From: a virus
IMG/VR virus record: IMGVR_UViG_3300009155_000038
Direction: 5' to 3' (one strand)
DNA: 64,000 bases
Shown: one piece after another, positions 21,138 through 35,881 of the stretch
How positions within the stretch are numbered: position 1 is the stretch's first letter
Layout: each line of letters starts with the position of its first letter
Position numbers and translations under genes: made by a program
Notes under the pieces: model-generated
The model's database searches: none
What the model was told of the DNA's origin: nothing
Seen by the model: only the letters and a program-made list of their open reading frames with translations

Positions 21138-21308
21138 TTACTTTCTGGTTTTTTCTTTGATGGTTGCCGCGGTTACCGCAAACAGGCTACCGAGCACGTA
21201 CGACAGGCCTTTCAGCCCTTCTACAAATACTTGCCCAGTGTAGTTTACGCTATCCTCGACCCATTGAAATTCCCAGTTGTTGTTATCGTCATTGTTATAG
21301 TGGTTCAT
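21138..21308 (-). CDS. Small hypothetical protein
   Basis: MNHYNNDD... ATG at 21308 shares CATG with the terminase ATG; alternative GTG start at 21350. Confidence 0.4.
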   Translation of the reverse strand: MNHYNNDDNNNWEFQWVEDSVNYTGQVFVEGLKGLSYVLGSLFAVTAATIKEKTRK

Positions 21309-23220
21309 GATCAAACCTAATAAAGCTGATAAGGCGACGAATATACCCACAGCGGGTATACGGTCGCTTATGGATGACCTACTGTCTATCGACGTTACTG
21401 ATCAAGCGTCGGTGCATGCCAGAGCTGCGGTACTCAAAGAGCTAGCGGGGCGGCACGCGTTCCCGTCCCTTGAGCCTTTGTTACCGCTCGTTCTGAACCT
21501 CAACGGTAAGCCTTACACCATAAAAGATCACTTCGCTTTTTCCCCCCTTTTTAGGGTATTAACACCCAAGAATCAGGTGTGGTGTACGGGCCGTCAGGTA
21601 TCGAAGTCAACATCGCTTGCGGCGCATGGTGTTGTATTTTCTAACGCGGTGCCATTCTTTAAAACACTGTATATCACTCCTCGGTTTGAGCAGGTTCGAA
21701 GGTTTAGTAACAACTACGTTCGTCCGTTCGTTGACCTGTCTCCAATCAAATCGCAGTGGAGCGGTACGAGTACGGAGAATTCTGTATTGCAGCGTTCGTT
21801 CAAGAACAACTCGATGATGTTGTTCAGCTTTGCGCTGCTCGATGCTGATAGAGTCCGCGGTGTGTCTGCTGACCGCGTGTGCATCGACGAAGTTCAGGAC
21901 ATGGACCCAGACCATGTACCTATCATTCAAGAAACAATGTCGTATAGTCGTTGGGGGACCAGCTATTACACGGGGACGCCAAAAACTTTAGACAACTTAA
22001 TTTACGGATTATACAAACGCTCCTCGCAGGCTGAGTGGTTTATACCGTGTGAGTCTTGCAAGCACTGGAACATTCCAGCGCTGGAGCATGATCTTGACGC
22101 CATGATCGGTGACTACAACATTCACATCAGCGAGAAACAACCGGGCACGGTCTGTGCGAAATGCCGCAAACCAGTTAACCCTAGGCACGGGCGCTGGGTA
22201 CACAGATTCCCCGAGCGCCGTTGGCAATTTGCTGGTTATCACGTTCCGCAGATTATTCTGCCGCTGCATTTTGCCGACCCGGAAAAGTGGTCGACTTTGT
22301 TATTAAAACGGGAGGGCTATGGAAACATGACCCAAGCCCAGTTCTATAACGAAGTCATGGGCGAAAGCGTCGACACCGGGCAAAAGCTCATCAGCGAAAC
22401 AGATTTGAAGGCTGCGTGTTTACTTGACTGGGAAAACAAGAAAGAACCTGAGCCGGCGTGTTTCAAAAACTTAAGCGACTACAAACATCGCATACTGGCG
22501 ATTGACTGGGGCGGCGGCGGTGAAGCAGGTATCAGCTTTACCGTATTGTCTGTCATGGGCTTTCGACCAGACGGCACAATTGATGTTATCTGGGCCAAAC
22601 GTTTGCTCATTGGCGGCGACCATCTTGCGGAAGCCGTCGAGTGCATGAAGTGGTCCAACTTGTTCAAGTGCGACTTCGTAGCCCATGACTATACCGGCGC
22701 CGGCACCGTGCGTGAGACAGTTATGGTTCAAGCCGGGTTTAACCTTGACCGTGTAATGGCCATGCGGTTAGTTCGCTCGGCCGCGCAGGACTTGTTGGTG
22801 TACAAGCCGCCGACCGAGATTAACCACAGAGCGCACTACAGTCTTGATAAGACCAGATCGCTTTTGTATACGTGCCAAGCTATCAAGCTGAAGCAGGTCC
22901 GGTTTTTCCAGTACGATCGTATCTCGCAGGAAATGCCGGGCCTGATCTCTGACTTCTTGGCGCTGGTCGAAAACAAGGCCGACTCACGCACGAGTAGTGA
23001 TATCTATACCATTACCCGGAATGTGCTTCTGACCGACGACTTTGCGCAGGCCGTGAATCTGGGCTGCGCTGCCCTCTGGCATATCAACGACGCGTGGCCC
23101 AACTTCGCCGCTATTGCTGGCGTTGCCCGAATAACCGAACGGCAAGCTGCGGCAGAACGCATTGATGACGACGATTGGGCTGACGACGCCATCGGCAACA
23201 ATTTCTTTGGCGGTTACTAG
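21307..23220 (+). CDS. terL: Terminase large subunit (GpA-like)
   Basis: Walker A-like GRQVSKST, coupling region ITPRFEQVRRFS, Walker B VCIDEVQD, motif III TGTPKT, Zn-knuckles CESCKHW and CAKCRKP, RNase H-like LAIDWGGG and terminal DDFAQA. Confidence 0.88.
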   Translation: MIKPNKADKATNIPTAGIRSLMDDLLSIDVTDQASVHARAAVLKELAGRHAFPSLEPLLPLVLNLNGKPYTIKDHFAFSPLFRVLTPKNQVWCTGRQVSKSTSLAAHGVVFSNAVPFFKTLYITPRFEQVRRFSNNYVRPFVDLSPIKSQWSGTSTENSVLQRSFKNNSMMLFSFALLDADRVRGVSADRVCIDEVQDMDPDHVPIIQETMSYSRWGTSYYTGTPKTLDNLIYGLYKRSSQAEWFIPCESCKHWNIPALEHDLDAMIGDYNIHISEKQPGTVCAKCRKPVNPRHGRWVHRFPERRWQFAGYHVPQIILPLHFADPEKWSTLLLKREGYGNMTQAQFYNEVMGESVDTGQKLISETDLKAACLLDWENKKEPEPACFKNLSDYKHRILAIDWGGGGEAGISFTVLSVMGFRPDGTIDVIWAKRLLIGGDHLAEAVECMKWSNLFKCDFVAHDYTGAGTVRETVMVQAGFNLDRVMAMRLVRSAAQDLLVYKPPTEINHRAHYSLDKTRSLLYTCQAIKLKQVRFFQYDRISQEMPGLISDFLALVENKADSRTSSDIYTITRNVLLTDDFAQAVNLGCAALWHINDAWPNFAAIAGVARITERQAAAERIDDDDWADDAIGNNFFGGY

Positions 23221-23549
23221 TAGATCCGCCAACAGACTTCGCGCAGATACTCTTTGACCAGCTCCAGATCTCTGACGGGCGTGGCTTCGATATTCTGCAC
23301 GACGATTAGCGCGGCGTCATGAAGCGCCTGTGCCGCTTCTGTGCAGTCCATGCTCTGCGTGTACAGCTGCCAAGTGGTACCAGTCTTCGGAACATAAGGC
23401 CCTTTACCGTGAACCGCGGCGTCGATTAACTCCTGAAATACGGAGTCTGGTTCAGTGTCGTTTGCGCCGAACTCCCGGTACTTGCTCTGCGTCTTTTCAA
23501 ACTCTTTGATCAACGCTTTGATTGCTTCCAGTGGGACGTTCATTGTCAT
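23217..23549 (-). CDS. Hypothetical protein
   Basis: Stop shares CTAG with the terminase stop. Confidence 0.65.
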   Translation of the reverse strand: MTMNVPLEAIKALIKEFEKTQSKYREFGANDTEPDSVFQELIDAAVHGKGPYVPKTGTTWQLYTQSMDCTEAAQALHDAALIVVQNIEATPVRDLELVKEYLREVCWRIY

Positions 23550-23566
23550 TGGCGTTTACTACCTTG

Positions 23567-24007
23567 CTAGTTATTAGACGGCTCAGTGCGCTTGTTTTTG
23601 TGCGCCAGCGCCTCTTCGCGACCCTTCTCGGTTACAGAGAAAGTGAAATCATTCGCTTCTCCATCAAACGCGCATTCTAAATACCCCAGCTTTACGCCAA
23701 GCTGCACTACGTTGGATTCAATACGGGTCATCAGCGCCTTGAACATCTTGCGCATCTGATTATTGAACTCTTCTTCTGTCTCGCCACCGATGGCGTAAAA
23801 CCCGTTACCATTCAGCGCGCTGTGTTCTTTGACGATGGCTTCCGTCTCGTCAAGTGACAGAAAAACGTGCTGCTCTTCTGAGATCTCTTTGGGTATACAG
23901 TAGTTCATCTCAGCCACAGTCTTTGCGAATAGCGTCAGCGCATAGTCACGTAACATAGTGATAGTGCCGCCCATGATCTTGCTGTCTTCATTTTCTTCGT
24001 TAGACAT
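23567..24007 (-). CDS. Hypothetical protein
   Basis: Start re-called at MSNEENE with AGGAG upstream. Confidence 0.65.
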   Translation of the reverse strand: MSNEENEDSKIMGGTITMLRDYALTLFAKTVAEMNYCIPKEISEEQHVFLSLDETEAIVKEHSALNGNGFYAIGGETEEEFNNQMRKMFKALMTRIESNVVQLGVKLGYLECAFDGEANDFTFSVTEKGREEALAHKNKRTEPSNN

Positions 24008-24314
24008 TGAGGTTCTCCTGAAGTCGTGCAGCGGCAACGACGGCGTCATACCGCCCCTTGGCAATGATACGTTCGCGAGCAGCCTCGCGCAGCTTTTTCA
24101 GATGGTCTGCGTAGACATCGTCGGTATTCACCATCGCTTCGGCGCTGGAGAAGCTGTGGGGCTTCCCGGTCAGCTTGTTGTCGCCGCTACCCATGATGTG
24201 CTCGACGGCGTTCAGCTTGACGACGTGCCGGTTGTCTTCCAGCTCCATCTCGCGGGTTACAGCGTCAGCCAGAGCGACTGCAGCCTGTTCGATCTTGTTT
24301 GCGTAATTACTCAT
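24000..24314 (-). CDS. Hypothetical helical protein
   Basis: Start re-called at MSNYANK with GAGGAG upstream. Confidence 0.65.
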   Translation of the reverse strand: MSNYANKIEQAAVALADAVTREMELEDNRHVVKLNAVEHIMGSGDNKLTGKPHSFSSAEAMVNTDDVYADHLKKLREAARERIIAKGRYDAVVAAARLQENLNV

Positions 24315-24600
24315 CGGTTTTCTCCTCAAGGTCGTATTTGCGGGCTATTTCTGTAACAACTTGTTCTATATCGGAAACCGCCGTGTCAAAGCGGCGGATT
24401 ACTTCGTCAGGATCGTCGGACTCGTCCTCTGCTTCAAATAACAAAAAGGCGAACAGCGTATCGCCGCAAGCGAGAACGCCTTTGTTGCCGCCCATTCGTT
24501 TTTTATAGGCGGCAAAGGTTTCGTTTTCTTCGGGCGGTTCCAACGCGAGCAGGTCTGACCCGGGATACGCGTCATAGATATCTTTAGGTGTGACGTTCAT
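24307..24600 (-). CDS. Hypothetical protein
   Basis: 97 aa, coupled overlaps. Confidence 0.6.
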   Translation of the reverse strand: MNVTPKDIYDAYPGSDLLALEPPEENETFAAYKKRMGGNKGVLACGDTLFAFLLFEAEDESDDPDEVIRRFDTAVSDIEQVVTEIARKYDLEEKTDE

Positions 24601-25328
24601 TCAGCGCATACTCCGCCTACGAGCCATTGTTCGCCGTGGTCAACTGTCTTTGTGGCGTAGAGCTTTTCCGCAAACTTTGCGTCCACGGCTTTCAGCCACT
24701 TTACCTCCGCGTCAGCAGCTTTCCGCAACTTGTGCCGCTGATTGCCAACAACCTTTAACGGCTTTAGCATCTCGGTTGTGATCAGCTCTTTCGTGGTGCC
24801 AATCACATTCAGCGCATCACGAAATGTGTTTTCTGCCGCACGCGCTGCATCGTGTTTTGTGCGCCACGTTTCGTAAGCTCTGGCAAACTGTGTTTTTTGC
24901 GCCGCAGTAAGCTGGTCAGCAATAATCATCCGGCGTTTGTAGTCTGGAGCTACTAATACGCTAATTGCGCAACGCAGGCCGTAAGAACAGTCCGACGCGT
25001 CGGTAATAATGACAGAGCAGTTATGTTCTCTGCTCGGCTTGCCTTCAAACGTCGGCTCTTTCGTCTTCTCTTCGCGGCGGTCTTTGTACTTGACAGCAAC
25101 AGCGTTGCCCCACTTTTCACAGACTCCGTCAAGATAGTCGTCTGCTTCGCGCTGCGTCTCAAACACGCGGTTACCGACCGTGATTCCGCGCAGCGTTGAG
25201 AAGGTGCCGTTGTAGGCGTTGCTGCCGTATTCATCGCGCAGGCTTTCTACGCGGCTGTTATATGCTTTCTCTAATTCTTTCGGTGTCAGCTTTCCGTCAA
25301 AGACTTCGGTGTGAAAACACGCGCCCAT
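24597..25328 (-). CDS. Hypothetical phage protein
   Basis: MGACFH...EYGSNAYNGTFST...CEKWGNAVA and C-terminal WLVGGVCAE, apparently with an internal insertion. Confidence 0.65.
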   Translation of the reverse strand: MGACFHTEVFDGKLTPKELEKAYNSRVESLRDEYGSNAYNGTFSTLRGITVGNRVFETQREADDYLDGVCEKWGNAVAVKYKDRREEKTKEPTFEGKPSREHNCSVIITDASDCSYGLRCAISVLVAPDYKRRMIIADQLTAAQKTQFARAYETWRTKHDAARAAENTFRDALNVIGTTKELITTEMLKPLKVVGNQRHKLRKAADAEVKWLKAVDAKFAEKLYATKTVDHGEQWLVGGVCAE

Positions 25329-25330
25329 TG

Positions 25331-25576
25331 TTACTCCGGGTTACTGAGATCCTGATTGGCCTGCCGCTCTTGGCGCGTCGGCTTGCGCTTGGGGAACTTG
25401 TCCGAGTGGCACACGTAACAGTGGCTCTGGCGGCAACCTGAGCAGCGCATCGTTTTACGGAAGCGGCCCACGGCTGGGACGTACTTGTTGTCGTCTGGCC
25501 CTAAACACCCTGCCAGTCGCTTATACATCTGCACGCGACTTTCAATGATATGCTTTTCTTCGTGGTAGCGTTTCAT
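25331..25576 (-). CDS. Small basic Cys/His protein (possible Zn finger)
   Basis: CSGCRQSHCYVCH. Confidence 0.6.
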   Translation of the reverse strand: MKRYHEEKHIIESRVQMYKRLAGCLGPDDNKYVPAVGRFRKTMRCSGCRQSHCYVCHSDKFPKRKPTRQERQANQDLSNPE

Positions 25577-27171
25577 TCTGTCTCCATGTCAAGGTGAAAC
25601 GTGCCGCCGTGCTGGGCGACAATATTCTGGACTTCAGCGTCTGTCAGCTCGAAAAATTCGCTTTGCCGGCCGTCATCGCGGCGCCGTCGTTTTGCTGCGT
25701 GTTCTCTATGCAAGCGAGTTTCCAGCGCTACGCAGTCTCCTGTCACAATATGACCGACAAGTATCAGCCCATGAATCCCGCACTCTAATTGTCGCTTACG
25801 TTCAGCAACTGTGCGGCTTGTACGCCCTATTTTAACAAACCCGGTATATGGCTCACGCAAGAAGTAAACGTATTCTTCTCGTGTGTTTTCTGCTGTCTCG
25901 TCTGGTTTTTCTGGACCTAAGAAACCAGTAGGAACACTTTCCAGTTTCTTAAGCAGAACCTTGGCGCCAGCGCGAAAAATTAACACCGGTTCTTTGCGGC
26001 CCGGGCCTGTCCAGTACAGCGCCATGTGCGGGTTGCGAATGTGTGGCGATATCTCTGTTTTTTTCTGCAGCTCTTTGCCAACAGAAAAGCCGCGACCTTG
26101 GATTTGTGCCGCTTTGTCTTCAAGCCATTTTTTTGCGGCGGCGTCTGTTTCTTTGTCGTAGCGTTCTTGATGTTTAGCCAACACGATTGGCGCGATTAGG
26201 TTATCGCCGCGATGGAGCATAGACGTGAGCATAGCCAACTTAAAAACAAATTCATGCACTTCTTGCGACTGAAACCCCATATAGGTTGGGTGCGATTTTC
26301 TATTCCCCGGATATATTTCTATGTCGCGCTGCGCCAAAATTGTTTCTTCAAGTGAGCGTAAAATACATTGCGCTCCCTCGGCTGAGTCATTAGTGTTTCC
26401 GGGAATCCGTTCAAAATTGCGTGAAAACCCAAATTGTTCGTCTGGCGACAATGGGTCTGGTGCCTGCAACGCTTGATATTGCATAGCGCGCTCAGTGTAA
26501 CCTGTTTGATCGCCAAAATTTAACGGAAATCTAGGTTCGTATGGGCGGAATGCGTTGTGAGCAACGCGGGAAAATAGCGCCGCAAGCGTAAACACGTCGT
26601 GCTTAGACTCGTCAGAGAGTGTATGCACATACTGCACAGTTGCTGTTGCGGCAACACCGCGCATGATGTCTTCGCCCGCAGAGTTGAAATACTCAGTATT
26701 TTTTGGCACATTGTGCGGGTGGCCTACTGTAAGCAGAATTGTTTTGATGCCGTACGGTTCATGACCTGCCGGAAAACGAAATAACATTGTTCGGTATGGC
26801 AAGTTTAAAAAGGCGGCAGAGACTTGCAGTTTTGTATTCCGCACTAACTTTTCAACAATTGGATACACGTTGTAAAACGGCCGATCTGATTCAAGCCATT
26901 CGTATTCTGATAGCGCTGAGATATGTTCGCGTTCGCTATCGCCTTGGCACTTGGCTTCGTACTTACCGCCTTTAATATCAAGCGGCGGTTGTTTTATGAC
27001 ATGCTCAAGTACTTCTTTGCTGCTACGTTTGCGCGCGTTTTGTATTGATGTTGTATACATTACGCTGCCGGTAAGAACGGACAAAGACTCAGGCCGCCCA
27101 GCTGCTTTTAATTTTTGTTGACAATCCGCAATTATTCGACTTTTTGCACTTTCAAAATCATGGAACCGCAT
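25573..27171 (-). CDS. Unknown N-terminal domain plus C-terminal GIY-YIG (T5orf172/MUG113-like) nuclease domain
   Basis: YVYFLREPYTGFVKIGRTSRTVAERKRQLECG...ALETRLHREHAAKR...SEFFEL. Confidence 0.72.
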   Translation of the reverse strand: MRFHDFESAKSRIIADCQQKLKAAGRPESLSVLTGSVMYTTSIQNARKRSSKEVLEHVIKQPPLDIKGGKYEAKCQGDSEREHISALSEYEWLESDRPFYNVYPIVEKLVRNTKLQVSAAFLNLPYRTMLFRFPAGHEPYGIKTILLTVGHPHNVPKNTEYFNSAGEDIMRGVAATATVQYVHTLSDESKHDVFTLAALFSRVAHNAFRPYEPRFPLNFGDQTGYTERAMQYQALQAPDPLSPDEQFGFSRNFERIPGNTNDSAEGAQCILRSLEETILAQRDIEIYPGNRKSHPTYMGFQSQEVHEFVFKLAMLTSMLHRGDNLIAPIVLAKHQERYDKETDAAAKKWLEDKAAQIQGRGFSVGKELQKKTEISPHIRNPHMALYWTGPGRKEPVLIFRAGAKVLLKKLESVPTGFLGPEKPDETAENTREEYVYFLREPYTGFVKIGRTSRTVAERKRQLECGIHGLILVGHIVTGDCVALETRLHREHAAKRRRRDDGRQSEFFELTDAEVQNIVAQHGGTFHLDMETE

Positions 27172-27186
27172 TTAGCATCCTTTCAG

Positions 27187-27627
27187 CTATGGCTCGCATA
27201 GCAATACGATTTTGCAGCCTCCCCTCTCCGCGATCTTGAGTACGGATTTGTGGTAGACAGCTACAGGTTTATCTCTAGCAACGTGGCCGGCGCTCATCAA
27301 GGCTTGCAGGCCGAGCTGGGCAAAACCTCGGTTTCGCAGCTCAGGATCGACAAAGCACTCGATGGTTTGGGCTGTGACCGGCTCGCCGTTGAGCTTTTCA
27401 GGCCACGGGCGTGTGCCGACCCAACCCGCCAGCACGGCGTTGCACCAGATGATGGCGATGGCCATCTCGGGGTGCGGGCCGGGCTCTGGATTGATGTAGC
27501 GCTTTTCCAGCTCTTTGCGAATCGAGCTGTCGCTTTTTGAATCCGGCCACGACAGCCGCGTGTAGATAGCTGTTACGTCAATCGTACGCAGCTCATTGAT
27601 ATCTTTAATTTTGATCCAGAAGTCCAT
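27187..27627 (-). CDS. GNAT-family acetyltransferase (putative)
   Basis: Motif A IECFVDPELRNRGFAQLGLQAL; start re-called at 27627 with GGAGG upstream. Confidence 0.68.
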   Translation of the reverse strand: MDFWIKIKDINELRTIDVTAIYTRLSWPDSKSDSSIRKELEKRYINPEPGPHPEMAIAIIWCNAVLAGWVGTRPWPEKLNGEPVTAQTIECFVDPELRNRGFAQLGLQALMSAGHVARDKPVAVYHKSVLKIAERGGCKIVLLCEP

Positions 27628-27663
27628 GTTAAATCCTCCAAGACTTAACACAGATTTTAACAA

Positions 27664-27736
27664 AGCCAGTGGCCGGGAACGATCCGGCGACATTCAGTTT
27701 ACAAAACTGACGCTCTACCAACTGAGCTACACTGGC
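27664..27736 (-). tRNA. tRNA-Thr (anticodon UGU), CCA not encoded
   Basis: GCCAGTGTAGCTCAGTTGGTAGAGCGTCAGTTTTGTAAACTGAATGTCGCCGGATCGTTCCCGGCCACTGGCT: acceptor GCCAGTG/CACTGGC, D arm GCTC/GAGC, anticodon stem TCAGT/ACTGA with loop TT-TGT-AA, T stem GCCGG/CCGGC. Confidence 0.92.
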
Positions 27737-27743
27737 AATCTAT

Positions 27744-28205
27744 TTATGTAAGAGCTGCAGCCTCCGGCCAATAGTATGGCAGATCTACAGGCTCTTGCCA
27801 CCCAAATTTTGAGTAGTACGCGTAGTCTTTGCGCAGCAGGTTGCTCCTGTGAGAAGCGTGGAACCTACGGCTGCCTATCCACGGCGGGTAATGATTGTGT
27901 ACCACGAGCGGGCGCATCCGGGAATAGACTGCCATGAACTCCGGGTGCAGGTTGTCGTTGAAGCCGCGGGAGATCCACTCACGGCAAACGACGGCGGAAT
28001 AAACCACTAGTGCTAGCTCATGCCCGGCCCACATCTTTACGGCCGGATGGTTGCGCCAGCGAGATACATAGGGTTCGTGCTGTCCGATACCCACGCCAAG
28101 CGCCAAGAGAATTTGTTTGCATTCGACTCGTTGCTTGCCGAGCCTTTTGTTATCTAAACACCGCGCTGAGACTCGAAAGCTTCTGCTCGGTAAGAAAGTT
28201 TGCAT
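27744..28205 (-). CDS. Pyrimidine-dimer DNA glycosylase/DenV-related protein (MSMEG_6728-like)
   Basis: MQTFLP...ARCLDNKRLGKQRVECKQIL...HPAVKMWAGH...FHASHRSNLLRKD...Y. Confidence 0.85.
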   Translation of the reverse strand: MQTFLPSRSFRVSARCLDNKRLGKQRVECKQILLALGVGIGQHEPYVSRWRNHPAVKMWAGHELALVVYSAVVCREWISRGFNDNLHPEFMAVYSRMRPLVVHNHYPPWIGSRRFHASHRSNLLRKDYAYYSKFGWQEPVDLPYYWPEAAALT

Positions 28206-28213
28206 AGCTCCTT

Positions 28214-28480
28214 CTATTCGTCGTCTGGGTAGTCCTCCGAGTCGAAATCCTCTTCGTACTCTGGTTCGTCATCTTCGTATGTCTCGTCCTCGTCTTCGTC
28301 TTTCCACTCTTCTTCGTCGTCTGTCTCGTCTTCATCCTCGTCTTCCGGGATAAAGAAGTTTGGCTTTTGCTGCGGTTCATCGTCATCGTCTTCATCGTCG
28401 TCACCGCTGACGAACTGCCACTCTTCCTCAATGAAGTCGTCGTCGAGTCCGTCGTCGTGCCGAGAATCCATATAGTTCAT
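28214..28480 (-). CDS. Very acidic small protein
   Basis: 88 aa dominated by D/E with interspersed F/W/Y. Confidence 0.65.
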   Translation of the reverse strand: MNYMDSRHDDGLDDDFIEEEWQFVSGDDDEDDDDEPQQKPNFFIPEDEDEDETDDEEEWKDEDEDETYEDDEPEYEEDFDSEDYPDDE

Positions 28481-28483
28481 GAT

Positions 28484-31117
28484 TTATCCGATGTCGCGCG
28501 CAGCTGAGTTATTATCGTCGGTCCAGAATTGCCTACACCACTTCTCGTCTACAAGAACGCCGGGCATATCTTGAATTAACTCTTCACCAGCAAACACGCC
28601 GGCGTTGGTCAGTAAATCTACAATTGCCAACCAGTTCGGCACCACGCTTTTGCCGTTATAAAAATACCTATCTATGGCCTTACGATTCAACCAGCAATGT
28701 TCTTTTTGCCGAAGAATGTAATTGTAAGGCTGGTCTTTGCGGCGTGGTCTTGGCAGCACATCGAGCTTTCCGGCCTGAATTCCGTTATTAATCTCGTGCA
28801 GCAGGGCGACGTGGGCGTGGGCTGGTGTAAGTAACTGCCCGGCGGCGTACTCGTGATTGAATGTCTTGCCGTATACCTCATCCAGCCATTTATGCAGGTC
28901 CAGCAGCACCGACGCCATGAGCGACGTGCCGGTTGTGGCAAGGCGCATGCGGTTCTGCAAGGCCCGCTGGATATAGGCGGGCAAAACGTGCCGAAGTGCC
29001 GAGAAATCCGTGGCCGGCGGCGGCGCTTCGCCTTGAATGACGTTCCAGCCATAACCGGGCGCGGAGGCAGCGCACAGTTGAGACAGGCGCACTACCGCGG
29101 CGTGGTTATGGCATTTTGTAATAGCGGCGCTAAACAGCGTGTCATCAAAAGCGCTGGACGCAAACAGCGGCCAGTCGATTTGTTTTGTGGCGTCGAATAG
29201 CTGCCGGCTCATGTGGTTCTTTTGCATGAGCGACGACTGGATTTGGTCGCAGTTAAGCGCCGCGCCAATCCGGGCTGCGGCACCAAAATTATTACCGATT
29301 ATTCCGACGGCCGTAAAATCCTGCCGCAGGACGGGCGCCAGTAGGTTGGCTGCCACGGCGCTGAATACATTCCAGATAAACCCGTTTTGATAACTTGGCG
29401 CCAAGAACTGATGAATGGCTGGCGGCGCAATCGGGGTCGGCTCTGGAAAGCTGTCGCGTTTCTTGGTCTGCGGCAGGACGACTGTCTGAGCAACGGCGCC
29501 CGTGTTTGTTATCTCGTACGGGCCAAACCGAAACACGCTGGCGTATTCGTCCCAGCCTAGTTTACTGGAGACGTTTACGATCTCTGGAGCGTGAAGCTGC
29601 AGGGCTAGGATATGGCTGCGCTTATTCCACGCGCGGTCGAAAATGACCAGCTTGCCTCGTGGCGCTAGTAGGGCCGCGCTGTAGGCCAGCAACCCCATGC
29701 GCTCGATCCGGCCTGCGCTGTCTGAGAATTCAAACTGCTCGTCATTTAAATAGATTATTCCGGCGTAGCTTTTCTCGCCGGTATCTGTGTGAATAACCTT
29801 GGAAATAACTGGGCGGATGGAGCAGATCTGCTGGCCTAGTTGATTCCACCAGCCGTTCTCGCGTTCGATGATCGTCCACTTCTTGTAGATACGTCCCGGC
29901 GCACCCGGCGGGCTTTTCAACGAAGACAATACACGGTCAGCGAAACCGGGCGAGAAGTTTGGCTCGAACTTGCGAAAGAACGCGTTGAGCTTGTCGTGCG
30001 GAATGGTCAGCCGGCGGGCGAAGGACTGCGCTGTAATCTCGTTCATGCCCGACAGCGTTTGATGCAGCCGGGTTTGCCACGTATCTGCGTTACGCCTGAT
30101 ATCCGACAGCCGGGCCATCGTGGGGTTAGCCAGTTTGTAGCTGTATGTCTTTGCTGGGGGTAATACAGCGACGTAACCTTTTGCTGCTTCCGCGCGACTA
30201 ATAATCTCGGGGGTTATAACAGTGCCCTGAAACAGCCGGGTCGCGGGTGGGAACGCTTGCCAGTTAACTCCGTGGCTAGTCGCCTCCGAACCGCTGTAGC
30301 TGCCCATGAGCGGCAGCAACGCCTGACCCTGCCGGAGCTGGCGGCACTGGGCGTTAAGCACCCAGAACGGATCGTCGATGATAAATTGCGTGCTTTTAAA
30401 TATCTCCATCGGCGGCAGTAACGTCGCGTGCAAGAGAAAATAGCCTGCCTCCGTTCGCCTGTTGTAGCTCGCAACCAACGGGATGAACTGGCTTTTGGAT
30501 TCGAAGTTATCAGCGTACTGCACCGCTAGAACGCCTGTCATTCTTCCCGGCAGGTCATAGAACGGAAAGATAATGCTGGGGCCGTTAGGGCGTAGTTTTG
30601 CGGGCTTTTGCCGCGACATTGCATTGCACAGCCGGTTTATTTGCTCGGGATGCGCGACGCCGACTAAGCCTTTGGCGTTGATCTCCGCCTGTACGCCGAG
30701 ATCATTGAGCTGGCAGGCTACGATGTCGTCGCCGTGAGTCCAGAGCTGGTCTGCTGTTTCAGCCCAGAAACTCTCCATTGTCACACGCCGAGATTGGACC
30801 CGCTCGTAATCCCCGGCTACATATGTGGAATCGCTACTGGATATAATGTCTAAGTCTGTAAACCGGTTTAACGCTTCGGGGAGGCTTGTATTCCATACAG
30901 CCGCGCCAAAGGTTATGATATCTCCATGAGCTGCACAGGCATTACAGTGCATCCAGATACCGTCGGTTACGATGTCATCAAATAAATGTAGCGCATTTTG
31001 CTGACATAAGGGACAATTCACCACGGCCGGGAACGTAGGGATTTCCGGCGCAACGCCCAATGCCGATAGGGCGGTTAGATGATGATGTCGGCGGATTAAA
31101 CAGGTAGGCAAACCCAT
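28484..31117 (-). CDS. DnaG-like primase-related protein (Zn finger, primase core, large C-terminal region), catalytic motifs degenerate
   Basis: CPLC...CNAC Zn finger; IIFPFYDLPGRMTGV resembles the DnaG IIFPI.D..G.V.GF motif; TOPRIM position reads FIIDDPFWV. Confidence 0.6.
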   Translation of the reverse strand: MGLPTCLIRRHHHLTALSALGVAPEIPTFPAVVNCPLCQQNALHLFDDIVTDGIWMHCNACAAHGDIITFGAAVWNTSLPEALNRFTDLDIISSSDSTYVAGDYERVQSRRVTMESFWAETADQLWTHGDDIVACQLNDLGVQAEINAKGLVGVAHPEQINRLCNAMSRQKPAKLRPNGPSIIFPFYDLPGRMTGVLAVQYADNFESKSQFIPLVASYNRRTEAGYFLLHATLLPPMEIFKSTQFIIDDPFWVLNAQCRQLRQGQALLPLMGSYSGSEATSHGVNWQAFPPATRLFQGTVITPEIISRAEAAKGYVAVLPPAKTYSYKLANPTMARLSDIRRNADTWQTRLHQTLSGMNEITAQSFARRLTIPHDKLNAFFRKFEPNFSPGFADRVLSSLKSPPGAPGRIYKKWTIIERENGWWNQLGQQICSIRPVISKVIHTDTGEKSYAGIIYLNDEQFEFSDSAGRIERMGLLAYSAALLAPRGKLVIFDRAWNKRSHILALQLHAPEIVNVSSKLGWDEYASVFRFGPYEITNTGAVAQTVVLPQTKKRDSFPEPTPIAPPAIHQFLAPSYQNGFIWNVFSAVAANLLAPVLRQDFTAVGIIGNNFGAAARIGAALNCDQIQSSLMQKNHMSRQLFDATKQIDWPLFASSAFDDTLFSAAITKCHNHAAVVRLSQLCAASAPGYGWNVIQGEAPPPATDFSALRHVLPAYIQRALQNRMRLATTGTSLMASVLLDLHKWLDEVYGKTFNHEYAAGQLLTPAHAHVALLHEINNGIQAGKLDVLPRPRRKDQPYNYILRQKEHCWLNRKAIDRYFYNGKSVVPNWLAIVDLLTNAGVFAGEELIQDMPGVLVDEKWCRQFWTDDNNSAARDIG

Positions 31118-32291
31118 GACAGCTATCCCGCTTGATCAGGCCCATGACGTCAGTGGTCGCGAGACACACCGGTTAACCGCCCTGTACCCGACACCCGACT
31201 TTGTTAAGTCGGCAGGTCAAGAGCGACTCCATGGCAACGAGACTCTCCCGCGCCATATGTACGCTGATCAGCACAATAAACTTTACCCTTGTCACACCGC
31301 GCCCGCAACATGGATGTCGGCGCTGTTCTTCTCTGACAAGCAAGCCCAGTTTAACGAAACTGAGGCCGCAACCATTAAAACTCGTATTCACAAGGCCGCC
31401 GAATACTTCGGTATTGCCGGCGCCGTGACCGAGCTGGAAGAGAAGATTGCCGCCAGCGCTGGGCTGGATTTGAACGCCCTGCCCGACTCGGACTTCGCCA
31501 TTGTGTGGCGGACGGATTCGGGCGCTGTCGAGCGCCACTGGCCGCTGCGGAACGCCGCAGAAGTAAAGTTTGCCGCTGCGCACTTCAAGTCGCACCGCGA
31601 CGAGTTTGTGTTTACAGACCGGCACACGATTGCCACCAAGATCCTCGAAAAGGCTGCCCAGTACGGAGCCGACACCAGCGACGCTGATGACTCGCTCGAA
31701 CTGGCTGCTGGCTATGGAATGTGCGCCGCCAAGATGGCCAGCGACATGCTCAAGGAGCGCGCCCGTCTGGCACAGCGCCAACACGCCGACCTTGCCGCTG
31801 AGCTGGTCAAGCTGGCTGCAGTTGTTGACCAGAACCCTGAAAAAGCACGGGAAACTGAAACCCGCCTGAAGCTCGCGGCTGTGGTCGACGGTTTTGATAA
31901 GAATACCAAGCTCTACCGGATGTATGACGCCGGTGGCCTGCCGCGCCCCGAAGAGGTGCTCTTCGCCGTCACCGAGAAGGTCGCTCGCGACTTCCTTGGG
32001 CAGAACGTCGAGACGACCACTGGTAACGTTTACGCCCTCGACGACCTTGAGAAGCTGGCCGTTGATGACGTCCGCGACTGGATGGGCGACGACTTTGCTG
32101 ACGCGGTAAGCGCCGGCGGCGTTTACATGGACCGCGAGAAGCTGGCCGAGATCGTCCCCACGCTGGATCGCGGCATGGCGGCTACCCTCGACCGCCTCAT
32201 GTCCGAGAAACAGGCAGGCGCGGTTGTTAAGTCAGCCGCGGTTGATACGCTGCTGTCGCTTGAAAAGCTGCACGAACTGGCTAACCGCTAG
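31116..32291 (+). CDS. Hypothetical protein (possible head/scaffold-associated)
   Basis: 391 aa, strongly C/G-ending codons, helical; AGGTAGG upstream. Confidence 0.75.
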   Translation: MTAIPLDQAHDVSGRETHRLTALYPTPDFVKSAGQERLHGNETLPRHMYADQHNKLYPCHTAPATWMSALFFSDKQAQFNETEAATIKTRIHKAAEYFGIAGAVTELEEKIAASAGLDLNALPDSDFAIVWRTDSGAVERHWPLRNAAEVKFAAAHFKSHRDEFVFTDRHTIATKILEKAAQYGADTSDADDSLELAAGYGMCAAKMASDMLKERARLAQRQHADLAAELVKLAAVVDQNPEKARETETRLKLAAVVDGFDKNTKLYRMYDAGGLPRPEEVLFAVTEKVARDFLGQNVETTTGNVYALDDLEKLAVDDVRDWMGDDFADAVSAGGVYMDREKLAEIVPTLDRGMAATLDRLMSEKQAGAVVKSAAVDTLLSLEKLHELANR

Positions 32292-32473
32292 TCGTCGTCG
32301 CTGCTATCGGGGCCCATGTCTTTCAGGTCTTCAATGACCTGCCAGCCTAGCTCTACGCTGCGGTCTTCGACATGGCGTCTGTTGGCGCCGGCTAGTTCTT
32401 CCGGCGTCCAGATAATGACTGCAAAGCCGCGGTTACGCAGCTCAGCAATGACTGCTTGTTCTTCTGGGGTCAT
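32288..32473 (-). CDS. Small hypothetical protein
   Basis: LRNRGFAVIIWTPEEL; stop shares CTAG with the plus-strand gene. Confidence 0.65.
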   Translation of the reverse strand: MTPEEQAVIAELRNRGFAVIIWTPEELAGANRRHVEDRSVELGWQVIEDLKDMGPDSSDDD

Positions 32474-32721
32474 TTCTCTTTTCCTATGAACTTGGCCATA
32501 AATAGCTCAATTGCCGACCGCGGCAGAGCTTCCGACGCATTAGATTTTGATAACTTAGGCGGCCTCGTATTCACTGTCTGTGAAGTTAGACCGCCAACTT
32601 CTGCTTCTGCTTCTATACGGCAGGTTTCAACATATTCCGACCACGCGTCGTAATCGTCTCGGTCCTGCGCTGATTCATACGGGATGTTTGGATCTTCAGG
32701 GAGTCTGTCGTTCCAGCCCAT
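32470..32721 (-). CDS. Hypothetical protein
   Basis: MGWNDRLPED...; ATGA overlap. Confidence 0.55.
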   Translation of the reverse strand: MGWNDRLPEDPNIPYESAQDRDDYDAWSEYVETCRIEAEAEVGGLTSQTVNTRPPKLSKSNASEALPRSAIELFMAKFIGKEK

Positions 32722-32896
32722 GATTGTTCTTCTTTTTCTTTTTATCGCCGGTGATTAACTCACCGCGCATGATGGAAACTGCAGAGGGAGCTGTGAGCCC
32801 GATCTTTACACGATCACCTTTGATCTCAATGATGCGTACAGTGACGCTATCGCCGATCATGATCGCTTCTTCCATCTTCCGTGATAAAACGAGCAT
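32696..32896 (-). CDS. csrA: Carbon storage regulator CsrA/RsmA homologue
   Basis: MLVLSRKMEEAIMIGDSVTVRIIEIKGDRVKIGLTAPSAVSIMRGEL matches the CsrA consensus MLVLTRK.GE.I.IGDDI.V.V..I.G..V.IGI.AP..V.I.R.E. Confidence 0.93.
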   Translation of the reverse strand: MLVLSRKMEEAIMIGDSVTVRIIEIKGDRVKIGLTAPSAVSIMRGELITGDKKKKKNNHGLERQTP

Positions 32897-32911
32897 CTTG
32901 CGCCTCTTTGA

Positions 32912-33583
32912 TTATTTAGACAAAGACTGTCGCAACATATCAACGACGTGCTGGGTGTTTCCATTTTTCAGGTGCAAGGCAGCCAGTTGTGCAACGAGCA
33001 ATTCTGTTCTGAACTTGATGGTCTGATTGATGTCTTCGGTCTTCCCAGCCTCGACGTCATAAATTGCACTGAACATCTCTGGATCGTCTGAAAAGTCTTT
33101 GATTGACGTGGACACGTTGGCCACGCGCAGGGCGATCCTCAAGATGTCCGGCGGATTAATGATACCCTCGCCGTCGAGCACAGATCCGATGTAGGCGCGG
33201 ATTTCGTCCGTAAATGGTTCTGGGTCATCATCTTCCGGCGGCGAAATCAGCATGGATTCCGTGATTCCCCACGCCACTTCTTCGGCGTCAGCCGGGTCGA
33301 ACGTGTCGGGTTGGAAGGGGTCGCCGTCGAGGACATTGCAGAAAGCGATGAAGTCCGGCAGCTGTTTGAAGAACCTGTCCGTGGTCAGGAGCTGGATCGC
33401 CACGATGAGTTTGTCGAGCGCCAGCTGCGGCAGATCGACGTCGAATTCTTCTTCGACTTCCATAGCGATGGTAGCCGGCTCCCACGTCAGTGCCTCGGTG
33501 CCGAACCGGTCCAGAAACATCGTCAACAGTACAGTTGCGAATGTTTCCTTACTGCGCCACGCTTCCTGCATTATTTTTGACAT
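32912..33583 (-). CDS. Conserved hypothetical phage protein
   Basis: 223 aa, strong codon bias, acidic. Confidence 0.7.
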   Translation of the reverse strand: MSKIMQEAWRSKETFATVLLTMFLDRFGTEALTWEPATIAMEVEEEFDVDLPQLALDKLIVAIQLLTTDRFFKQLPDFIAFCNVLDGDPFQPDTFDPADAEEVAWGITESMLISPPEDDDPEPFTDEIRAYIGSVLDGEGIINPPDILRIALRVANVSTSIKDFSDDPEMFSAIYDVEAGKTEDINQTIKFRTELLVAQLAALHLKNGNTQHVVDMLRQSLSK

Positions 33584-34034
33584 GGAACCCTGCTCTGTTT
33601 TCAGCCTTCAGTACGCCCCGGCGGTACAGTTCACTTAAATTGTAGCTAATTGTCTCCATGAACGGGCTGGGTAACTCCATAACAGGCTCGCCCGTTTGGA
33701 GGTCTGTAAAGCAATCTTTACCCGTCCAAGTGCAATATTGGCCGTCCGCGAATACCAGTAGATCCGGGTCGCAGGTTGCGCAGTCTGGCATATCACGGGC
33801 TGCAAGCTCGGTCAAAATAAGTGACCGCTGGGCCGGCTGCAGAAAAGCCAGATTTTCAAGCATGTCGGCGACCAGTAGCGTGTAAATTTCTTGCTTGTCT
33901 AAAACTGTAGCCCCGGGCGGAAATGGTTTATTTAGCGCTGTCGTGAAAACAGTGCGGGCGTGGAGCTTGCTCAATTTGAGCACGGCCATTACCATATCCA
34001 GCTGCAGGTCTTTTTTATCTACGGAGGTTTCCAT
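33549..34034 (-). CDS. Hypothetical protein
   Basis: 161 aa; ATG shares CATG with the plus-strand gene at 34033. Confidence 0.6.
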   Translation of the reverse strand: METSVDKKDLQLDMVMAVLKLSKLHARTVFTTALNKPFPPGATVLDKQEIYTLLVADMLENLAFLQPAQRSLILTELAARDMPDCATCDPDLLVFADGQYCTWTGKDCFTDLQTGEPVMELPSPFMETISYNLSELYRRGVLKAENRAGFHVKNNAGSVAQ

Positions 34035-34308
34035 GATCTCGATTGTCGACTCGCTTTCTCACATTGCGAATGGTCGTGCTGAGTTTGTTGTCAGCGGTAA
34101 TGGTATCGAAGAATTGCTGTCCTCGGCAACGGCGAACACTGTGCTGCAGAAGGCTGCTGAACTAGGCCTCAACCGCCCGGGTGTTTCGAGCGCTAGCGGC
34201 CCGTATCCGGTCGACGCGGAAGGCAAGACCGATGATGAGCTGATGATGGGCAAGCGAGGCCCGGTCGCTGCCTACCGCCGCGATTTTGTTATTTTAGCCT
34301 CGATCTAA
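34033..34308 (+). CDS. Small hypothetical protein
   Basis: Start re-called at ATG 34033 (MISIVDSLSH) with GGAGG 5 nt upstream; biased codons. Confidence 0.65.
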   Translation: MISIVDSLSHIANGRAEFVVSGNGIEELLSSATANTVLQKAAELGLNRPGVSSASGPYPVDAEGKTDDELMMGKRGPVAAYRRDFVILASI

Positions 34309-34690
34309 GCTTTGCTGGTTCAAAGTCGTCTTTGCGTTCAACGCCGACAATGTCTACAGGCTTGCCGTTTTCGAACGCCACGACTGTAAAACAAATCGGC
34401 GTATCGCAGTCGATATGGAGCAGTCGGGTGATTTTTCGCCCGGCAGCGCGGCTCATTGTTTCTGCAACCTTGAACGCTTCGGCACTGGTGGCAAAAAGTC
34501 CAACCGGCACGTCGTCCATCGTGTGCCGCCAAACTACTAGATAGCCTGTCATACCGGAGTTAGAAGCCGCGCTGCGTTTCTTACGCGGCGCGGCTTTTTC
34601 TGGGATAAGTTCTTTCAATTGGCGCGCTTGTTCTCGGAAACCAATAGCCAAGCGCCCCGCTGTAATTTTCTTGATCGCTTTCTTCTTCAT
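34289..34690 (-). CDS. Hypothetical protein with basic N-terminus
   Basis: GYLVVWRHTMDDVPVGLF. Confidence 0.65.
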   Translation of the reverse strand: MKKKAIKKITAGRLAIGFREQARQLKELIPEKAAPRKKRSAASNSGMTGYLVVWRHTMDDVPVGLFATSAEAFKVAETMSRAAGRKITRLLHIDCDTPICFTVVAFENGKPVDIVGVERKDDFEPAKLRSRLK

Positions 34691-35200: not shown

Positions 35201-35353
35201 GCTGGCTGCGTTAACCGGGGCACACTCATTCTCCGCTAAGTAAATAGCAGAGAGATGAAATGTGCCCCGGCTACGCAGCCAGCAACAACAACGAAGTCTG
35301 CGCCCCAGCTACAAAGCTAGCGGCGCAGACGTGCCAGTCTACGAGAGACTGGC
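35201..35353 (-). ncRNA. Candidate structured RNA: 83-nt long hairpin plus two further hairpins
   Basis: GCTGGCTGCGT/ACGCAGCCAGC, CCGGGGCACA/TGTGCCCCGG, TCAT/ATGA, TCTC/GAGA and GCTA/TAGC nested (35201-35283); GTCTGCGCC/GGCGCAGAC (35296-35330); GCCAGTCT/AGACTGGC (35333-35353). Plus-strand C-A mismatches become G-U pairs on the minus strand. Confidence 0.55.
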
Positions 35354-35734
35354 TGAGCACGCCATGTAGGCGTGCGCTTGAGCCAAACGCTCAGCGTTTG
35401 GCACGTCGAGCGGCCGGACGTTGCCGTCCTCGTCCGCAAGGAAGCCGCGCATCATGGCGGCCTGCCACACGTGATACAGCACGGCCATGCGGCCGCGCTT
35501 ACTGGCCGCGGTTTTTTTAAGCACCGCAGCCTTTAGGTACGCGACAGCCTCCCAGAAGGGAAGCTTGTCAGCCACGCGGGCCGTGGCTTCCATCGTGTCT
35601 TCGAAGAACCTAATAGCATGCTCCTCGATGATATTCACGCTCGACGGCTTGATTTGGCCGTCGAGACGTCGCGCTACCGCTTTCTTGACGGTGGCAATAT
35701 CTCGCTCAGACACGGAAACAGTGGCAACAGCCAT
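35339..35734 (-). CDS. Hypothetical protein
   Basis: Start re-called at MAVATV; AAGGGAG upstream. Confidence 0.65.
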   Translation of the reverse strand: MAVATVSVSERDIATVKKAVARRLDGQIKPSSVNIIEEHAIRFFEDTMEATARVADKLPFWEAVAYLKAAVLKKTAASKRGRMAVLYHVWQAAMMRGFLADEDGNVRPLDVPNAERLAQAHAYMACSASLS

Positions 35735-35881
35735 GGCGTTAACTCCCTTGTAACGCGGAAAAACGAACGACAAGGTCGACGGCTCTGCCGACGACAGTCC
35801 ACTGATACAATCATATGGACTATTTAATATGCCGCGTTTTTGCGGGAAATTTAGCAGCGTTCCAGATTCGAAACTGGAAAA

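Follow-up and report, generated by a model that had tools for sequence, protein, structure and literature searches.

Gene overlaps most often span 4 nt, a modal length that includes 'termination codons of complementary overlaps' (Lillo and Krakauer, PMC2174442). Divergent, head-to-head overlaps are strikingly under-represented, initiation needing more signals than termination (PMC2174442), and the gene caller Prodigal disallows them entirely (PMC2848648). Because Prodigal disallows the class, the examples of head-to-head overlap found in databases are scarce and suspect. Here we describe overlaps of both kinds in IMG/VR record IMGVR_UViG_3300009155_000038, an uncultured phage of which a 64,000-nt stretch (hereafter the window) was analysed. 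Three genes of the window lie on the plus strand, namely the large terminase gene terL and two further conserved genes, p391 and p91, and each of them shares a palindromic CATG with a divergent minus-strand gene, so that the two start codons interlock. We found no description of conserved CATG or CATATG start interlocks in phages in the open-access literature. For the rarity of head-to-head junctions in other phages we rely on that literature (PMC2174442).

The window comes from a freshwater phage clade with genomes of ~200 kb, ~98% of whose genes are on one strand. Megablast of 15 kb against a phage collection returned no close relative among deposited phages. Among annotated phages, Salmonella phage Arash comes closest (30% TerL identity by tblastn); its terL is co-oriented with the neighbouring genes and is therefore uninformative on the junctions. 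IMG/VR holds many relatives, several of them complete at ~200 kb, and these form the basis of the comparisons below. The window encodes tail-fibre, baseplate and terminase genes, and nearly all of its genes are on the minus strand.

None of the window's six strand switches has a spacer: three are start-start junctions, two are stop-stop junctions in CTAG, and the sixth is a 20-nt overlap of 3' ends. An earlier note on this DNA, made from its letters alone, had pointed to the three CATG and two CTAG overlaps and to the zero intergenic space of the divergent pairs, and both observations are borne out by the sequence. All 41 distinct relatives compared have CATG at the p391/p877 junction. At that of terL two forms occur, CATATG in 35 relatives and CATG in 16, which together account for 51 of 55 distinct relatives; CATATG consists of two ATGs back to back, with zero spacer. 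Of the four others, three have 4-14 nt between the two starts, and one has ACG for the terL ATG. In that relative (L025) the terL start reads CACATACGGCACC, compared with CATATGGCACC in the others; an error in sequencing, damage to the gene or the use of a start codon other than ATG might each account for the ACG. Of 26 distinct relatives, 14 have CATG at the p91/p161 junction, and the rest range from a 17-nt overlap to a 10-nt spacer. The junctions are conserved among relatives down to 46-57% protein identity, and the most distant relative (57% identity in TerL, 47% in p391) keeps CATG at both of the corresponding junctions.

The starts that create these junctions are well anchored. In the open reading frame (ORF) listing, four of the six (21307, 31116, 31117 and 34034) are the earliest possible starts of their ORFs. 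In the relatives, TerL shows amino-acid conservation with free wobble that begins ahead of codon 10, and the sole in-frame start upstream is the ATG equivalent to 21307. The 56-aa minus-strand gene divergent from terL starts at the junction CAT in 51 of 55 distinct relatives, with N-termini of the form M[NRGS]x[YN], and in all 28 relatives compared p91 starts at the position of ATG 34033, preceded by a canonical GGAGGT. The three starts that the earlier note had chosen among alternatives (21307, 21308 and 34033) are thus upheld. All six head-to-head partners are conserved proteins, with free-wobble conservation that reaches to within a few codons of the common tetranucleotide.

At each start junction, the predicted ribosome-binding site (RBS) of at least one gene is written in the first codons of its partner. 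The Shine-Dalgarno (SD) element of p91 is spelled by p161 codons and that of p391 by p877 codons, and the SD-like element of the 56-aa gene, which is AGGT or GGTG, is antisense to terL codons 3-4 (Table 1). Wobble conservation is 1.00/1.00 in the SD codons of p161 and 0.97/0.92/0.92 in those of p877, compared with ~0.64 elsewhere in the same genes. The codons used are among the rarest: TCC makes up 10% of Ser, ACC 19% of Thr and CCT 10% of Pro codons, and yet codon 4 of terL is CCT in 83% of relatives. The combination of invariant wobble and rare codons reveals selection on opposite-strand DNA, and agrees with the earlier note's expectation that RBSs would lie inside the opposite gene. A core SD 4-mer precedes p391 in 39 of 41 relatives, p91 in 28 of 28 and the 56-aa gene in 27 of 52, against a 5% background. 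SD-led initiation is the norm for this phage, because GGAGG-type words are over-represented in intergenic DNA by k-mer enrichment; a core SD also precedes at least half of the crudely called starts, relative to the same background. The start pairs are asymmetric, with a strong signal in one partner and a weak signal in the other.

The terL start is of a different kind. A core SD 4-mer at -18 to -4 is found in 0 of 52 relatives, and the start is preceded by a -10-like box with the logo T[TC]ATA[GA]T in 52 distinct relatives. The A at position 2 and the T at position 6 of the box occur together in 69% of these, compared with 7-11% at the same offset of other genes, and the box matches TATAAT at ≥4 of 6 positions in 73% of relatives, compared with 3-6% at the same offset elsewhere. 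It is kept through 31 different hexamers while the encoded residues vary (NY, HY, HN, QY, DY and others). The box stops 5 nt short of the A of the ATG at CATG-type junctions and 7 nt short of it at those of the CATATG type. Leaderless genes are typically recognised by a -10 box at such a distance together with the lack of an SD. The likeness to leaderless mRNAs such as that of lambda cI from PRM lies in these two features; terL differs in that its box is inside another gene's codons 3-5, no conserved -35 element precedes the box in the 52 relatives, and the phage otherwise uses SDs. The genome-wide rate of -10-like boxes is 3.5%, and because boxes beside other gene starts occur at this background, terL is a special case and leaderless initiation as a general mode is ruled out. 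A leaderless terminase mRNA is, from these motifs, possible in these uncultured giant phages.

The stop-stop half of the finding is ordinary. The tail-to-tail CTAG overlaps at the ends of terL and p391, and the TTAA overlaps in relatives, are of exactly the same known class as the 4-nt overlaps between termination codons of complementary genes. What these phages add is that the stop codon used and the junction type co-vary among relatives. In 25 of ~55 distinct relatives, the stops of terL and its convergent neighbour interlock as CTAG or TTAA, and TTAcTGA is found at the end of terL in 7 relatives, where the terL stop is TGA and is unable to form such a palindrome. The gene 3' of p391 differs among relatives (3 matches), and the junction type differs along with it. 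At the p91/p133 end, relatives often have TGATCA, which leaves zero gap, or else a palindrome of 4 nt. CTAG occurs in the window at 0.46 of expectation and TAG is the rarest stop codon, so stop codons have seemingly been shaped by the overlap. These two figures, and the retention of the junctions across relatives to 46-57% protein identity, place the pattern beyond chance, as the earlier note had supposed.

Two further features of the terL/p110 end were noted. Both genes end in a Tyr codon and a stop, generating the 8-nt palindrome TACTAGTA, and an inverted repeat TTGGCGG...CCGCCAA (23203-23233), kept in many relatives, brackets the two stops. A hairpin role for this repeat was rejected, since changes in the left arm are not matched in the right arm and a U tract is lacking; we treat the repeat as a by-product of coding.

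Does the pattern hold at every strand switch, as had been claimed? Genes were called in the 203,206-bp and 198,312-bp genomes of two complete relatives with a simple, purpose-made caller that uses a self-trained codon model and places starts only roughly. The minus-strand genes number 230 and 238, respectively, and the credible plus-strand genes in both are the same three loci (terL, p391 and p91) plus one extra each. Some relatives carry a thioredoxin-like plus-strand gene (L109:14730-15185; Pfam Thioredoxin_2, 9e-10; homologues in L115, L121 and L122) with a signal-peptide-like N-terminus, which sits upstream of a 741-aa DUF6321/acylphosphatase-like gene in a promoter-rich region. Its spacer is ~140-190 nt. 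Ordinary spacers at other strand switches, the outcome that the earlier note had named as speaking against its proposal, thus occur at this gene in the complete relatives. The claim stands within the window; in the complete relatives it is true of these three loci alone, the thioredoxin-like gene being normally spaced. The zero-spacer rule covers three conserved loci inside long minus-strand arrays, and not every strand switch of the clade.

Two side observations concern plus-strand genes of the relatives. A candidate fourth CATG junction, in the complete relative G003, was discarded: alignment with homologues places the real start of the thioredoxin-like gene ~49 codons further in, and other relatives read ATG GCG TAG where G003 has the CATG. 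In relative G006, a second plus-strand gene (155309-155677, L131; 122 aa, membrane-like N-terminus) lies behind p391, producing a two-gene plus-strand unit.

Table 1. Junctions, genes and signals at the strand switches of the window. Positions are those of the 64,000-nt window; PWM, position weight matrix; AF2, AlphaFold2.
Feature	Position	Strand	Details
CATG, interlocked starts of terL (+, 21307) and the 56-aa gene (-, 21308)	21306-21309		context ggttCATGatc
CATG, interlocked starts of p391 (+, 31116) and p877 (-, 31117)	31115-31118		context acccCATGaca
CATG, interlocked starts of p91 (+, 34033) and p161 (-, 34034)	34032-34035		context ttcCATGatc
CTAG, interlocked stops of terL (23218-20) and p110 (23217-19)	23217-23220		context ttaCTAGtag
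CTAG, interlocked stops of p391 (32289-91) and p61 (32288-90)	32288-32291		context ccgCTAGtcg
terL, large terminase, 637 aa	21307-23220	+	Pfam GpA_ATPase 2e-11; phrog_675 1e-57; 90 related loci
Small conserved gene, 56 aa, membrane-like, hydrophobic C-terminus, divergent from terL	21138-21308	-	coding score 0.29 per codon; tblastn matches in 20 loci
p110, 110 aa, convergent with terL	23217-23549	-	phrog_16722 3e-15; 47 loci
p877, 877 aa, divergent partner of p391	28484-31117	-	73 related loci; N-terminus conserved, wobble free from codon 7 on
p391, conserved helical protein, 391 aa	31116-32291	+	64 related loci; AF2 model pLDDT 67
p61, 61 aa, convergent with p391	32288-32473	-	good coding score; only 3 homologous loci
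p161, 161 aa, divergent partner of p91	33549-34034	-	45 related loci
p91, conserved gene, 91 aa	34033-34308	+	coding score 28.9; 42 related loci, 55-88% identity
p133, 133 aa, convergent with p91	34289-34690	-	3' ends overlap 20 nt (p91 stop 34308, p133 stop 34289)
-10-like hexamer TATAGT, preceded by TGt	21296-21301	+	5 nt before terL ATG; inside codons 3-5 of the 56-aa gene
AGGT (ACCT on the plus strand), SD-like element of the 56-aa gene	21315-21318	-	inside terL codons 3-4
AGGTAGG, SD of p391	31102-31108	+	antisense of p877 codons 4-6 (CCT ACC TGT)
GGAGGT, canonical SD of p91	34023-34028	+	5 nt before ATG; antisense of p161 codons 3-4 (ACC TCC)
Candidate weak p91 promoter, CTCAAT-N17-CATATC	33970-33998	+	inside p161 codons 13-22; 2 mismatches to consensus
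Strong phage promoter, CTAAAT-N17-GGCATATT	35826-35854	-	the window's only one; exact match; PWM 44.5

We consider it fairly probable, on the evidence of these sequences, that genome compaction locked the opposite initiation regions together, with the minus-strand genes probably read through antisense to the plus-strand genes. Deletion would have shortened the spacers flanking terL, p391 and p91 until the overlap was the largest possible at no cost in amino acids, a limit represented by CATG or CATATG for two starts and by CTAG, TTAA or TGATCA for two stops. At this limit, initiation signals would be forced into coding sequence, and we infer that the junctions would then be frozen because an indel would alter the spacing of an RBS embedded in the partner's codons. 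The minus-strand genes just 3' of each plus-strand gene would be served by read-through transcripts that cross it antisense, and because such long transcripts would serve the genes beyond, promoter space would not be needed on the minus side. The plus-strand genes may use small promoters inside their partner's 5' coding region. For p91 this would be the weak phage-promoter copy at -34, and for terL a -10-only box, with transcription starting at or next to the A of the ATG to yield a leaderless or near-leaderless mRNA. Tandem genes in the complete relatives are also tightly packed.

The phage promoter in question, CTAAAT-N17-(GG)CATATW, is a real class, with eight copies in G003 that are all intergenic and all on the minus strand. 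The consensus is CTAAATTT-N4-CAAAA-N-CGCGGCATATT, with a conserved tatTGT proximal to the transcription start site (TSS). Across the sequences examined there are 29 distinct copies. A 200-kb genome has only ~8 of them, and those of G003 cluster at 130-146 kb, where copies were mapped at loci L105, L109, L110 and L111. The window's strong copy points toward, and is upstream of, all three junctions; the other minus-strand match in the 64 kb is weak (2331-2359, PWM 10.3), and the PWM scan of the plus strand found none. Terminator-like sites showed no excess in our scan. The single strong minus-strand promoter and the lack of terminator excess fit long minus-strand transcripts but do not prove them. 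Apart from SD words, tRNA-like words and the known promoter, intergenic k-mer enrichment yielded nothing, so that no second (late) promoter motif came to light.

CTAAAT-class promoters upstream of the plus-strand genes were absent by PWM, and a relaxed scan gave a position-conserved match for p91 only, not for terL or p391. The candidate p91 promoter ends 34 nt before the ATG, and 9 of 28 relatives have CTAAGT-N17-CATATC at the same -34 position; its full PWM score is <8, which is under threshold. The p161 codons beneath it have invariant wobble at V15 (always GTA), S22 and K23.

Some side observations touch on transcription in this region. Its best terminator-like site (35488-35520, plus strand) is an 8-bp G+C stem followed by T7, inside a conserved minus-strand gene (35339-35773) and between p91 and the strong promoter. 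It could stop p91 read-through before that promoter or could be a chance occurrence. Two short contigs from different samples, L134 (5,284 nt; window strain, whole, reversed) and L140 (1,402 nt; aligned over 1-40), start shortly before the p391 ATG, at distances of 36 and 32 nt (window 31080-31084), a coincidence of ~2e-4 by position alone. For the common edge, an RNA 5' end and a break in assembly where mosaic segments meet are both possible. A metagenome scan aimed at transcript ends gave 7 contigs; a 144-kb contig carries the same sample prefix as one of the short ones, and that sample therefore looks like a metagenome. Regarding gene function, p391 has a weak Pfam match to DUF6582, and PHROGs, an Atlas search, the AF2 model and Foldseek against the PDB gave nothing usable.

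Several observations weigh against compaction as the sufficient explanation. Tandem junctions show a spread of small spacers, whereas the start junctions show a sharp peak at -2 and 0. Pure compaction predicts a spread, so something beyond deletion bias holds the junctions in place. No promoter was found for p391 in the relaxed CTAAAT-class scan, and two of the partners have only weak SD-like elements (9 of 41 relatives for p877, 4 of 28 for p161), so that compaction does not account for the translation of either. The distance of the terL box is fixed relative to the minus-strand start and not to the terL ATG. Because the spacing follows the minus-strand start, the box may partly reflect Tyr/Asn coding of the 56-aa protein, and the TAT:TAC ratio at the box site is only weakly biased (18:9, compared with 183:254 genome-wide). 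Finally, the relatives share a phylogeny, and the junction counts are thus non-independent trials.

Could the geometry itself be what is selected? It is possible, although we hold this only tentatively and from sequence patterns, that the junctions are selected, clade-wide two-way initiation modules, each with an RBS or promoter encoded in the partner's first codons, in which transcription or translation of one gene would shut off the other, physically or through antisense pairing, with terL leaderless from a -10-only promoter inside its neighbour's codons 3-5. In a related but rather unlikely account, the zero-spacer geometry was selected as a regulatory switch, in which convergent polymerases or complementary 5' RNA ends would impose mutually exclusive expression, perhaps according to the time of infection, and compaction would be a by-product. 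The junctions are exactly -2 or 0 in 41/41 and 51/55 relatives, without drift among small spacers, each pair has the asymmetry of strong and weak signals noted above, and the plus-strand genes must be transcribed against a long minus-strand unit, all of which would suit such a switch. However, an RBS embedded in partner codons accounts equally well for the frozen spacing, and our searches gave no function for p391, p91, p161 or the 56-aa gene on which a timing logic could be built. The switch is also compatible with the compaction that we favour. We regard as improbable a bidirectional leaderless rule, in which the palindrome marks two adjacent TSSs and both mRNAs begin at their own AUG. The terL box 5-7 nt upstream without an SD, and the two As that lie side by side in CATATG and CATG, are as this rule would have them, but it is contradicted by the conserved, canonical and properly spaced SDs of p391 (39/41) and p91 (28/28), kept by rare codons, because these would be useless on leaderless mRNAs. 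The 56-aa partner of terL also has its SD-like AGGT, and no conserved -10-like box precedes p877 or p161, start-adjacent boxes being at genome background. The common 'bidirectional initiation rule' that the earlier note had offered as one possible mechanism is not supported, p391 and p91 being SD-led and terL being SD-less with a -10 box.

The same note had also raised a gene-insertion process. That insertion or precise inversion left palindromic ends, CATG at the head and CTAG at the tail, at each change of strand is very improbable, even though terL and p391 do have 4-nt palindromes at both ends in the window. In every relative, down to 46-57% identity, the three plus-strand genes belong to the syntenic core, so that insertion has not been recurrent and the junctions are older than that divergence. 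The tails vary (CTAG, TTAA, TTAcTGA, TGATCA and larger overlaps) with the stop used, as stepwise compaction predicts, and the lineage-variable plus-strand gene that was examined, the thioredoxin-like one, does not have a zero spacer. An artefact, in which chance CATG and CTAG lie beside real genes whose true starts are elsewhere, or in which one ORF is no gene, is barely credible. One such case did occur, the G003 CATG at the start of the 741-aa gene, but at the three loci there are six conserved partners, four of the six starts are the earliest possible, and the junctions are kept in 26-55 distinct relatives.

How, then, do the start junctions compare with described overlaps? They resemble the head-to-head class in that opposite-strand genes overlap at their 5' ends; what differs is that three pairs are kept in dozens of relatives, with the RBS of at least one partner in each pair clearly embedded in the codons of the other. 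Compaction to CATG or CATATG follows the same logic as same-strand ATGA and TAATG overlaps, which are the largest overlaps without amino-acid constraint and place the downstream RBS inside the upstream gene. Same-strand overlaps, however, permit translational coupling on one mRNA, whereas the opposite-strand partners here cannot be coupled in this way and need separate transcripts.

These phages provide a well-supported natural case of real, stable head-to-head overlaps, a class usually written off as mis-annotation. Because the most widely used gene caller forbids the class, one start at each such junction is probably mis-called in databases. The junctions show to what extent a coding sequence can hold a partner's RBS by way of rare codons, which bears on annotation rules, on scans for synonymous constraint and on the design of compact synthetic genomes. 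They also offer three short, testable DNA modules for interference between opposing initiation regions.

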